A stretch of 62,910 nucleotides of DNA, counting the filler, from Globobulimina sp. (taxonomy: Eukaryota): assembly GCA_003354225.1 (NCBI GenBank). It is 54 parts of 54 records of this genome, joined end to end, with 100 filler letters (N's around TTAATTAATTAA, not from the genome) between each part and the next. Parts side by side here need not be neighbours in the genome. Positions count along the whole stretch, not along the records: positions 29,189 to 30,255 come from PIVH01024405.1; 53 more parts are not named here. The stretch is one strand, 5' to 3'. A model generated the notes under the pieces. It did not search any database. It was not told the origin of the DNA and saw nothing but the letters and a program-made list of their open reading frames with translations. How positions within the stretch are numbered: the stretch's first letter is position 1; each line of letters begins with the position of its first letter. The position numbers were made by a program, and so were the translations under genes. Positions 4,673 through 35,608 of the stretch are shown here, piece after piece.

Positions 4673-4770
4673 AAAACGTTTCTATAATTCTCTGATTTAT
4701 TTTGTCGGAAACGTTTCTATAATTCTCTGATTTATATTGTCTGAAAACGTTTCTATAATTCTCTGATATA
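4673..4770 (+). repeat. ~35-bp tandem repeat, about 3 copies
   Basis: AAACGTTTCTATAATTCTCTGAT starts near 4674, 4708 and 4745. Confidence 0.9.
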
Positions 4771-7010: not shown

Positions 7011-7715
7011 AGTAGCAACAGATTTATTCACTTTGCTTCATGCCAGCCTATTACTAAAAAATTGGGTGTTGTACGAACTTTAGCCAGACGTGCCCATCAG
7101 TTATCTTCTAATATGACCCATTTAAGTGAAGAAAAAGACATCCTTTTGAAAGCATTCGATCGATGTGGTTACCCAAAAGACGATATAAAACGATTCATTC
7201 ATCCAATCGGAGCATCTAAGAAACCTGAAGAGAAATCCAATCCAAAATGTGTTCTGCCATACATTCCTGGACTTAGTGGCCCTTTGACAAGTTTTCTTAA
7301 ACGATGGCAAATTACTACCTGCTTTACAAAGAAGACAACATTGGGTCATCTTCTCTACAAACGATCTCCTGAGGTCGAGTATTTTGATAGACAAAATGTT
7401 ATTTACAAAGTACATTGTTCTGGTTGCCAGAAATGCTATATAGGTCAAACAAGAAGAAAAGTTAGATGTCGGCTAAAAGACCATAAAAATGCCATTAGAC
7501 TCAAGAATGAAGAAAATGCTATTGCAAACCATGTGGTAAATTGTGGTCATCCCATCGACCCATTCAATGCCGATATTGTTGGCCAAGATAGTAGACCAAA
7601 CATTTTATCAGCCAAAGAGTCTCTTCTCATTGACAGTTGTAATACTATGAATAACTTGACTGGCTATTCACACACAGCCCTAGTCACTCTATTATCCCAA
7701 TCGATTAAATTGTAA
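7011..7715 (+). CDS. PLE polyprotein C-terminus: RT thumb and GIY-YIG endonuclease with CCHH motif
   Basis: VIY..CxxC..YIGQT, catalytic R and E, and two conserved His (Penelope/Poseidon-type). Confidence 0.92.
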   Translation, partial: SSNRFIHFASCQPITKKLGVVRTLARRAHQLSSNMTHLSEEKDILLKAFDRCGYPKDDIKRFIHPIGASKKPEEKSNPKCVLPYIPGLSGPLTSFLKRWQITTCFTKKTTLGHLLYKRSPEVEYFDRQNVIYKVHCSGCQKCYIGQTRRKVRCRLKDHKNAIRLKNEENAIANHVVNCGHPIDPFNADIVGQDSRPNILSAKESLLIDSCNTMNNLTGYSHTALVTLLSQSIKL

Positions 7716-9344: not shown

Positions 9345-10412
9345 GCACAAGGCCAGGTAGCCAGACGTCCCGTGGGTATCCATGCAATCATTGAAGATGG
9401 ACCAGTCAGACAGGACATGTATGTACAACATCTGGTTGGAGGAGGTACACGACAACAAGAAAACTTCTCGGTGGAACAAGATGCATTATCAGCCCTTGTC
9501 ATCAACTCTGAAAAAGATTTGAATGAAATCACATCAGACGAAGCAAGAAAAGTGGTCAAATTCATATGGGATAACGCCAGAGCAGGACATCCAGTCACAA
9601 CACATGATATGGTTGGCCGTTTGAAGCCACTGAGTAAAGGTGACATTTATACTGTTGTTTCTTATTGTTTAGATGGCAGTTTGGGGAATGCAGCCCGATA
9701 TACAGGAATGCAAATAATGCCTGAGTTTCCACAGGTGTATGATAAAGAAATTTGTGCAGTGGAAAAGAATCGAGTTTTGAAAATTGCTTTGGAAACAAGC
9801 AATTCAGTGCAACAAGCGGCTCAGGAAAATCAGCGCAGTCGACAGCAACGACCCCAAAATGGTGGAGGTCCCAGACGTTCATTTGGACCCAGCAGACCAC
9901 AGAGACAAAGAGGGCAACCTGGACAAGGGTATGTCTGTCACACATGTGGCAAGACAGGTCATTGGAGGCCAAACTGTCCCGACAGAGATACAGCACGTGA
10001 TCAAAATGCAAGAAGAGAACCGAATCCACAGTCATTGGTCATCATTGCTACCATTGCATCAGATCAACAACCGGAAGTGGCAACAACAAAAGAAGAAATT
10101 GACAATATCGAATGGGATTATAAGGTACCAGGGCCATTACAATATTCTGAGTATTTATATCAATTTGCAATAAAAACAGGTCAATCGTTTCCTTTAGGAA
10201 CCTTTGAAAATTTACCAGAGTTTTTGGTACCGGGTTGCGACTTTCCATATTCCTATCATAAAGAGGCCTATGACAGTTGGGTATATTATACTGAAAGAGG
10301 GGAACCAGAGGAATTTGACTGGATAACACCAACGTTAGAGGCTATGCGTAAAAAAGAGTTAGAACGATTAGAAGCATCAGTCGTGCACAAACGTGTAACT
10401 TCAAGCAATGTG
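9345..10412 (+). mobile_element. Gag-like ORF with a CX2CX4HX4C zinc knuckle (LTR-retroelement-like), partial
   Basis: R/Q/G-rich segment, then CHTCGKTGHWRPNC at 9936-9977. Intronless and open across the whole contig. Confidence 0.7.
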
Positions 10413-29188: not shown

Positions 29189-29440
29189 AATTTCAACGTT
29201 TTTACTGGTTTCTGGTCGACTTTTCCAATGTTCTGCCAAAAATAGTGTTGTTTTTATCGAAATATCGGCCTAAACAACACATTTCAACGCACAAATCGCG
29301 CGTTACCGCGCGATTTGTGCCACACCGCGTAGCGGTGTGCGTTGAAACGTGTTGTTTAGGCCGATATTTCGATAAAAACAACACTATTTTTGGCAGAACA
29401 TTGGAAAAGTCGACCAGAAACCAGTAAAAACGTTGAAATT
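29189..29440. repeat. Long palindrome (100-bp arms, 1 mismatch) with two internal perfect hairpins forming a T/Y shape
   Basis: Arms 29189-29288 and 29341-29440. Ear 1 29289-29320 (14-bp stem, TTAC loop). Ear 2 29321-29339 (8-bp stem, GTA loop). Confidence 0.95.
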
Positions 29441-29499
29441 TCATGAAAAATCTGGTAATTGAGCCTATAAATAAGAAAGTACCTCCATTTTATTGGGAA

Positions 29500-30060
29500 A
29501 ATATCACTATCTGAGGCGAAAACTGGTATATTTTAGTTAAATTCGTAAAACTTAACATAAAAATAGGTAAATGACCAGTATTTTTGTTGATTTTCACCCT
29601 AATCACAGCATATTTTCAAGTAATTTAATCGCAAAATGCTATAAAACTGATCAATTCTGCTGGAAGTCTCATAATTTTTTCCTAAAATTCAATAGTTATC
29701 CATGTTTTGATGAAGAATATCGTTAATTTACGTAAAGAAATGGTCAGATTCTCAATTAATTTCTTACATTTAACATAAAAACATGAGAAAGACAACATTT
29801 TTATTGAATTTCATGCAAATTTCACCAATTTTGCAAGAAATCTGACCATAAAATGCTATAAAATTGATCAATGCTGCCGAGAAAAGCGTTTATTTTAACC
29901 TAAAAATCAATAATTACCCATATTGTATTGAAAAATATCATTAATGAGTACTAAAAATGTTAGATTATCAATAAATTTCAGAGATTTCACCTTTAAAAAG
30001 TGTAGGTTACATCGTTTTATGACTAAATTTAGTCATGAAAAACGTATTTATGGTGACTTT
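29500..30060 (+). repeat. Degenerate ~217-bp tandem repeat, about 2.5 copies
   Basis: AAAATGCTATAAAA(C/T)TGATCAAT at ~29633 and ~29850. TTAACATAAAAA at ~29552 and ~29770. CCTAAAA(T/A)TCAATA at ~29681 and ~29899. Confidence 0.75.
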
Positions 30061-30773
30061 ATGCCAGAACTGCTGTCCAGTCTGATTATTAACTAGTTAA
30101 TGAGTGGTTGTCCAGTGGAAATATCTCGTGTTATACATAAAAATAAGAAGATATTGTAATCATGATTTCATTGGTGAAAAATTTCACTAAAGAATATGAT
30201 GATACGGAGGACTTTATGTATCAGGACATTATTCCTAATACAGTTTTTCCTATTANNNNNNNNNNNNNNNNNNNNNNNNNNNNNNNNNNNNNNNNNNNNT
30301 TAATTAATTAANNNNNNNNNNNNNNNNNNNNNNNNNNNNNNNNNNNNNNNNNNNNATGATGCAACACATTTGATAAAATGGTGTATTTATTGCGTGGTGA
30401 ATAATATCAGTGCTTCTGTACATTTACCTTCGTATTCAATTAAATTAAAAATGACAGACGAAATGAATGGAAATTCAGTTTTATTGGCAGCATTGACTTG
30501 TGCTTGTATCATATTGTTAGCTGCCGTGTTGTTGCTTGCTTGCAAAAAGAAACAGAAAAAAATCCATACTTCTTAAATGTACTATAGCTATTTTTAATTT
30601 TAATACACATTTTAATTATATTTTTAACTTGAAAAATAAAACCCAAACTCCAGCCAAACGTTAATAATGCTGTCCATTCGAATTCTCATTTGGTGCCTTT
30701 TACGTATGCCAATATATCTCGTACATTGAGCATAAAAAACAGGCAAAACACACGTACACTAAAATATAATTAG

Positions 30774-35025: not shown

Positions 35026-35352
35026 CGCGTTGAGGTCGCCGGGCATCCACTGATTACCGACATCCAAAAGCAACAAGGAACATCGGCTTATTTAAGAGAG
35101 CTTGCCCGCCTTCTTCGCCCGGCTGTTCTTTTGCCAGCCGCACAAAAAATGCTAAACAACCTTTCAGTTGACAAAGAATTTTATAAGTATCCGGGAGAAA
35201 TTATTGACGGAAAAGGCTATGGCATAATGGAGGCATCACGGGGAGCACTAGGCCATTGGGTTAAAGTAGCCAAAGGCAAAATAACCCACTACCAGATTAT
35301 AACCCCTACGGCTTGGAATGCTTCTCCAAAAGACAGTAATGGGTTGCGGGGA
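35026..35352 (+). CDS. Bacterial NiFe-hydrogenase large subunit fragment (group 2, HupV/HoxC-like)
   Basis: AGHPLITD..RELARL..EASRGALGHWVKV..ITHYQIITPTAWNASPKDSNGLRG. It ends abruptly before the C-terminal DPCxxC. Confidence 0.85.
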
Positions 35353-35608
35353 GAAGTGCACACAGCGATAATGTAAAGGAGAAATTGCCATCACCAACAA
35401 TGAGGATGTTACATGGTCTGTGTTTGTGTGGTTTGCATTTTGTTTTTATAATTGAATTCAATACTGTGTATGTTATTGGTTGGAATGACAATGATTCGAT
35501 GATACATTGATTCCATAAATGATTGACACAACGCAGGTTTGGGAGCTCTCTGTCTTCCACGAAAGACATGATATGTGGTACTATCCATTCATCGACCAAT
35601 GGCTGCAT
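35350..35608 (-). CDS. F-box plus the start of a DUF2431/BMT5-like methyltransferase domain, truncated by a junction
   Basis: IVPHIMSFVEDRELPNLRCVNHLWNQ (F-box) and ILIVGDGNFSFTLSL. Confidence 0.6.

Follow-up and report, generated by a model that had tools for sequence, protein, structure and literature searches.

Hairpin ends with two ears occur in parvoviruses, whose genomes are linear, single-stranded, 4-6 kb in length and carried in virions. A hairpin followed by tandem repeats is found at the ends of poxviruses, and the foldback transposons FB, Galileo and Tetris have long inverted arms composed of tandem repeats. In Junonia coenia densovirus, the repeat is 547 nt long and includes a 130-nt Y-shaped hairpin that occurs in flip and flop forms (PMC3738899). 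Polinton ends are described (bioRxiv 10.1101/2023.08.22.554363) as terminal inverted repeats of 100-1500 bp with target duplications of 5-8 bp, in passages that do not use the word 'hairpin'. The hairpin analyzed here, in our best reading and by analogy of structure, would work like a parvovirus end without belonging to a parvovirus.

Structure and genomic status of the hairpin

The window (the whole stretch of DNA that was analyzed, 62,910 nt) consists of 54 unrelated contigs of approximately 1.07 kb each, with N spacers between them, and the hairpin corresponds to the first 252 bases of one of these (G000:C24405, here L001; 1,067 bp). Since the left arm begins at the first base of its contig and the window contigs are unrelated, nothing further leftward belongs to the hairpin. 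The following features were identified:

29189..29288, + strand: left arm, beginning at the contig edge; its full extent beyond the edge is not assembled
29289..29320, + strand: long ear, a perfect 14-bp stem with the 4-nt loop TTAC; the stem base CAAA...TTTG is common to the families
29321..29340, + strand: short ear (29321-29339; 8-bp stem, GTA loop) and one unpaired C (29340)
29341..29440, + strand: right arm, containing a 14-nt motif at 29396-29409
29441..29811, + strand: repeated non-coding body after the right arm, with 75-87% identical pieces in eight other contigs and a 96% copy in L005
29537..29990, + strand: degenerate tandem duplication of approximately 217 bp in the body, in two copies that are 73% identical
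30186..30255, + strand: 5' part of the coding sequence of a double-jelly-roll major capsid gene with introns, which continues in C8409 (L005)

The preliminary description of this DNA had reported a stem of 100 bp with one mismatch, two perfect ears (14 and 8 bp) and an unpaired C, all of which were confirmed. The arms are complementary at 99 of 100 positions, the sole mismatch being A29281 against C29348, and the folding energy of the hairpin was -146.2 kcal/mol, compared with -31.6 ± 3.6 kcal/mol in 200 shuffled sequences (z = -31.9), none of which was as stable (0/200). In an alternative register the stem grows to 105 bp and ear bases are lost. A terminal palindrome of this size was present in only one of the 54 window contigs and, among the other 53 plus 49 further loci, a comparable one was found only in L007, where it turned out to be another hairpin with this architecture. 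Smaller internal palindromes were observed in the window contigs starting at 4673 (24 bp), 43189 (138 bp, 71%) and 47853 (48 bp). The Rfam search returned 11 sub-threshold matches in five loci, none near the gathering cut-off. A TATA-like motif just inside the arm (29466-29473) is kept in L002, L004, L007 and L010, which is weak evidence in AT-rich DNA.

The source assembly comprises 70 Mb in 48,370 contigs and is mixed in composition, including eukaryotic housekeeping genes, a piece of a NiFe hydrogenase, arrays of C2H2 zinc fingers and a single weak Wnt exon; a search for 18S genes in it gave no match. Many of its genes we take to be foraminiferan-like by resemblance, and the host of the repeat contigs may be either a protist or a small animal. 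Signs of the mixed assembly were also observed within the window, namely a sub-threshold, GIY-YIG-bearing retroelement-like piece (7011-7712), a gag-like frame with a zinc knuckle (9345-10412) and a NiFe hydrogenase fragment (35026-35373).

Evidence that the hairpin is genomic came from three sources: the imperfect arms, a decayed copy and a second metagenome. The arms were imperfect in six of seven palindromic cores, with differences of 1/100, 5/69, 1/102, 6/38, 1/51, 2/31 and 2/73 counted for the window and for six families or copies besides it; such mismatches could also arise if the assembler joined variant copies in one path. The palindrome in L057 is decayed and lies inside its contig. 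Run X2, a marine sediment metagenome from another study, yielded a 112-nt contig (30 + 52 + 30 nt around the core), as expected of a hairpin in a k=31 graph. The loose ends attributed to this contig on the basis of their lengths are reverse complements of each other along 13 nt, although their sequence is not that of the window; the amplification status of this run is not on record. Run X1, perhaps the source of the assembly, contained a contig of 670 nt that reaches from the core as far as 29949, along with two diverged variants of arm and core, run X3 contained the body only, and nothing in run X4 matched the hairpin stretch. In X1, a loose end at 29347 with a long-ear-like start and a different stem sequence was also observed, possibly from a further family. 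The imperfect arms, the decayed copy in L057 and the complementary, diverged arms of X2 thus indicate that the hairpin is real and evolved.

The same observations bear on the possibility that only a short T is genomic and that the 100-bp arm arose by fold-back during whole-genome amplification. Amplified material would fit the fragmented, mixed assembly, a natural stem of 6-8 bp, as found in tandem arrays (see below), could self-prime, and the arms of L193 are exact (0/69 differences). A fresh fold-back is nonetheless very unlikely because the arms are usually mismatched, and the contig-internal position of the decayed L057 copy, the X2 arms and the presence of such a palindrome in a single window contig point in the same direction.

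Regarding the left arm, L001 and L163 both start approximately 100 nt into it, and the palindromes of L182 and L193 extend into satellite on both sides, so the arm in the window was probably truncated by the assembler. The earlier view of this arm as a longer palindrome collapsed during assembly is therefore probably right, given a second family that starts at the same depth and palindromes that elsewhere extend to both sides.

A core shared by unrelated repeat families

The arm and approximately 370 bp behind it recur in eight other contigs with 75-87% identity, and the 14-nt motif is exact in four other contigs of the family; allowing one mismatch, the motif search added no family member among 24 new loci. 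L002 retains both ears. Its long ear is changed on both sides of the stem (a compensatory replacement of a T-A by a G-C pair), its loops are altered, and its short ear has gained one mismatch. That the ears evolved and were not made by amplification, as previously argued, is borne out by such compensatory changes and by the diverged copy in another study's metagenome.

Two-ear cores from 12 loci were tabulated (12 cores), eight of them from this assembly and four (L177, L179, L182 and L193) from short AT-rich contigs within a single other record, filed as a bacterial genome, which may not be independent of this assembly. Among the 12 tabulated cores, long-ear stems had 7-16 paired positions and differed in their loop-side sequence, and what the cores have in common is the base of the long ear together with the short ear. 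In the other families the short ear measures 6-7 bp and is their most conserved part. The arms, on the other hand, sort into about four groups that are mutually unrelated in sequence (17-55% alike between families over 40 nt in global alignments, vs. 57-97% within a family). Since the centre is conserved while the arms are replaced, the core would be the working part. The short-ear pattern matched seven places in six contigs (0 for the reversed-pattern control), and all seven abut a whole or partial long ear.

A looser pattern gave nine matches in the same assembly against five in the control, and the loci L167 and L168, retrieved with it, are not cores. Six of the 25 matches from prokaryote genomes were examined; four were real cores, and two more were folded and had no such structure. 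Four metagenome matches (L022-L025), with neither arms nor homology, were attributed to chance, as was the only match obtained in the IMG/VR hairpin-pattern scans (0, 0 and 1). The candidacy of L179 as an element with two hairpin ends was rejected, this contig being a mosaic of fragments, and no element with both ends was present among the contigs examined.

Cores were found inside contigs, in tandem arrays and as decayed copies, and in several dispersed families, which does not support the initial idea that the hairpin is the end of a single free replicon. In L161 and L162, cores lie in head-to-tail units of 194 bp with a stem of only 6-8 bp, so that long arms are not obligatory. Ears located elsewhere without a palindrome had been named beforehand as evidence against the hairpin, and this was found in part: the ears of the tandem arrays lack long arms, and keep a stem of 6-8 bp. 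The array units also carry a 21-bp microsatellite and, approximately 50 nt away from the long ear, a 12-14 bp inverted match to it. Tandem repeats follow the arm in most families, with periods of approximately 10, 21, 38-55, 133 (as a BLAST offset) and 194 bp; unlike these satellite-bearing families, the window copy has only the degenerate 217-bp duplication. The homology of one family stops at CTAG in two full copies, and a third contig begins with a similar CTAG end.

Several of these traits recall Helentron/Helitron2-type elements. Helitron2 has a hairpin at each end and asymmetric inverted repeats of 8-15 bp (PMC3627910), HINEs contain microsatellites and tandem repeats (PMC4067079), and joined ends are on record (PMC5148889). 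The core could accordingly be the end region of a non-autonomous, HINE/DINE-1-like element, either a 5' hairpin or a 3' and a 5' hairpin joined, with the arms as secondary fold-backs; the 194-bp units with their microsatellite and inverted match, and the CTAG ends, would agree with this. We nevertheless regard this explanation as rather unlikely, as joined ends do not predict that the short ear should never stand alone (7/7 beside a long ear), the arms (38 bp to over 100 bp) are much longer than 8-15 bp, CTAG is followed by T in one of three cases and has no hairpin before it, and the window body contains, by eye, no inverted match to the long ear. The CTAG family did not show Helitron1 ends either (5'-TC, 3' hairpin-CTRR, insertion between A and T).

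Palindromes that reach satellite on both sides (L182 and L193), the two truncated bodies lying head to head in L010 and the other foldback-like repeats of the assembly are what would be expected if the core were the passive centre of long foldback transposons, i.e. terminal-inverted-repeat elements mobilized by a DDE enzyme, with arms of tandem repeats. In such transposons, however, the outer termini should be conserved, whereas here the centre is conserved, arms are unrelated between families, and the outer limits of body homology are ragged, differing in L001, L002/L003, L007 and L008. This origin is consequently considered improbable.

The position of the cores on the contigs might also suggest hairpin telomeres capping linear DNA of the host and followed by subtelomeric satellite, since six of the eight tabulated cores of this assembly lie within approximately 105 nt of a contig edge and the succession of hairpin and tandem repeats recalls poxvirus ends. 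Palindromes break assemblies in any case, arms vary between families and cores occur inside contigs and arrays, making this the faintest of prospects.

Additional repeats were observed in the assembly. A separate MITE-like family bounded by inverted repeats, with internal palindromes and 21-bp repeats, abuts a two-ear core (L057:369-976, L115, L124-L132), and a 461-bp palindrome with internal tandem repeats has no two-ear centre (L086:1898-2358; G000:C4592). Adjoining a 10-bp satellite, a 694-codon open frame was found on the minus strand of L156 (1-2082), for the last 500 codons of which a protein search retrieved no homologue; next to the same satellite, L121:1055-1589 holds an intron-split frame with no Pfam match that presumably resembles a YqaJ-type exonuclease, judging from its motifs. 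Finally, a multi-copy frame of 216-228 residues with an end that looks SOCS-box-like by eye was observed in L112:214-861, L113:1-684, L058 and L109; the L113 frame had no Pfam or Atlas match.

The preliminary description had also envisaged flip/flop inversion of the core. Both orientations were indeed found after the same arm (within L161, and in L177 vs. L193), yet the views at contig edges (the end of L161, L177 and L193) reflect palindromy and not hairpin transfer, because the orientation that an assembler prints in a long palindrome is arbitrary, and the orientation score of decayed type-1 copies was tied (24 vs. 25 and 16 vs. 16). An apparent inversion could also result from slippage between two TGTGC repeats.

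The adjacent capsid gene and Polinton-like contigs

In the contig path, the core, arm, body and capsid gene follow one another within approximately 850 bp. L005 (C8409) overlaps the window contig with 96% identity over 664 bp, and the pieces of its gene align consecutively with a family of proteins of 420-460 residues (3,184 database proteins), five exon pieces spanning profile positions 50-436 in order (E-values 2e-5 to 4e-22). The predicted fold of a database homologue, P0009 (pLDDT 90.8), matches the major capsid protein of Sputnik (E-value 1e-16) as well as the double-jelly-roll capsids of PBCV-1 and mavirus. PF21738 matched five of 97 homologues and none of six L005 pieces; in the Atlas, the clusters are eukaryotic and PF21738 is annotated on 24% of one of them. 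The capsid was missed in Pfam and PDB sequence searches, had no match in a phage collection and no relative among IMG/VR contigs by alignment, and the cluster look-up returned only 'hypothetical protein'.

Five GT-AG introns, each 50-58 nt long, interrupt the gene. Two of them are common to a paralogue, from which the gene differs by synonymous-only changes in 43 codons and by amino acid changes in 18 (172 codons compared). The short introns and the synonymous excess indicate that the gene is under selection. Three more paralogues of this capsid clade are present in the assembly, where one intron position is common to most capsid genes. The Polinton/Maverick-type label rests in part on motifs that we take to be of this type, and also on capsid genes with Maverick-like neighbours in L149 and on contig L061. 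In L149 (G000:C332:1-6241), integrase-, minor capsid-, major capsid- and ATPase-like frames with short introns were observed by eye on one strand, the pieces giving only a weak P-loop match in Pfam, while L061 (G000:C806:1-4966), from a second Polinton-like group, holds a protein-primed PolB (E-value 1e-47), an adenovirus-type protease and a DJR-like frame. A same 100-bp repeat was observed downstream of two capsid gene clades (L135:326-426, L020:974-1071 and L133:675-775). Matches to PF03175 numbered 34 in the assembly, some of them probably cellular PolB. The hairpin repeat was present in none of 45 polymerase or capsid loci, whose contigs are short.

The link between hairpin and capsid is known from one locus and its 96% copy, which does not include the hairpin end; the DNA upstream of the paralogues is unassembled. 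With some 20 capsid contigs in 70 Mb, adjacency to a core by chance is unlikely (below 1% by a rough estimate), and the capsid gene beside the window copy may be either cargo or a neighbour. A further explanation is that the hairpin is the terminus of a virus or satellite derived from a Polinton/Maverick, in which protein-primed ends were swapped for self-priming hairpins and the capsid is the first gene. The short path from core to capsid, covered from the core to 29949 by the X1 contig, and the intron-bearing, selected gene with its three further paralogues speak for such a derivative, as does its position, given that other capsid genes in this assembly come after a minor-capsid-like gene (by eye) and that of the window comes after the hairpin repeat. 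Nevertheless, it would explain the capsid link only: all other cores lead into satellites and not into viral genes, no gene was recognized in approximately 1 kb downstream of the capsid gene, IMG/VR gave no match, and the link is confined to the one locus and its hairpin-less copy, with the upstream DNA of the paralogues out of view. We therefore judge a derivative of this kind to be quite unlikely.

Proposed mechanism and comparison with known systems

The explanation that we favour, held with about even confidence, is that the two-eared core serves a group of non-autonomous elements as their conserved end or origin, acting in cis, and that these elements replicate via self-priming hairpins and are present in many chromosomal copies in a marine eukaryote. 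The end of the element, as single-stranded DNA, would fold into the T, and the folded 3' end would prime synthesis back along the element, generating head-to-head palindromes centred on the core. The arms would thus mirror whatever adjoins the core, since the fold supplies a self-priming 3' end. A nicking enzyme of the HUH type, provided in trans and most plausibly a Rep-helicase like those of Helitrons, might then resolve the hairpin and invert the core, which would resemble the rolling-hairpin replication of parvoviruses, and read-through could produce head-to-tail arrays.

Regarding candidate enzymes, 23 Helitron Rep-helicase matches were detected in the assembly, 20 of them above the cut-off. 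The hairpin repeat was found in none of 15 Helitron loci and none of three whole Helitron contigs, element ends being mostly unassembled. A Rep/NS1 gene of the HUH-SF3 type, suggested at the outset as a companion of the hairpin, did not appear: in this incomplete assembly there was no match to NS1 (PF01057), Rep_N (PF08724) or Viral_Rep, whose controls also matched nowhere, nor to the SF3 helicase PF00910, the only profile whose control worked (7/14). No CRESS Rep was found in the assembly, and no nick site was located.

If the favoured explanation is true, these repeats would represent a class of chromosomal elements that spreads by hairpin-primed copying and generates long palindromes and satellites, and the core would provide a short searchable motif for tracing the enzyme. 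A more specific version, which we consider doubtful, is that linear eukaryotic elements with T-hairpin ends exist, some with a Polinton-type capsid, as a hairpin-primed and possibly satellite or segmented relative of Polintons, and that their degenerate ends gave rise to several of the host's satellite-bearing repeat families. If the capsid link is real, two viral modules would be joined that were not known together before. In the open-access literature, no report was found of a two-eared hairpin that forms a core common to dispersed eukaryotic repeats or that lies at the ends of Polintons; prior annotation in repeat libraries is possible.

Compared with known systems, the repeat unit described here (core plus approximately 520 bp) is similar in size to the 547-nt repeat of Junonia coenia densovirus. 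With the parvovirus ITRs (AAV, densovirus) it shares a stem with two ears, two core orientations and, in this copy, a capsid gene just inside. It differs from them in that no NS1/Rep was found, in that the adjacent capsid is a double and not a single jelly roll, and in that it occurs as many chromosomal, decayed and tandem copies, with several unrelated arm families around one core.

Helentron/Helitron2 and HINE/DINE-1 elements have in common with these repeats the terminal hairpins, microsatellites, tandem repeats and head-to-tail arrays, and Rep-helicase genes are present in the assembly. Here, however, the two hairpins always adjoin, inside inverted arms of up to at least 100 bp, and neither canonical ends nor T-rich target sites were observed. 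Polintons/Mavericks share the neighbouring double-jelly-roll capsid, and the assembly holds protein-primed polymerase genes, but the capsid gene here lacks its usual neighbours. As in the foldback transposons FB, Galileo and Tetris, long inverted arms consist of tandem repeats, with the difference that in the repeats described here it is the centre, rather than the outer end, that is conserved.
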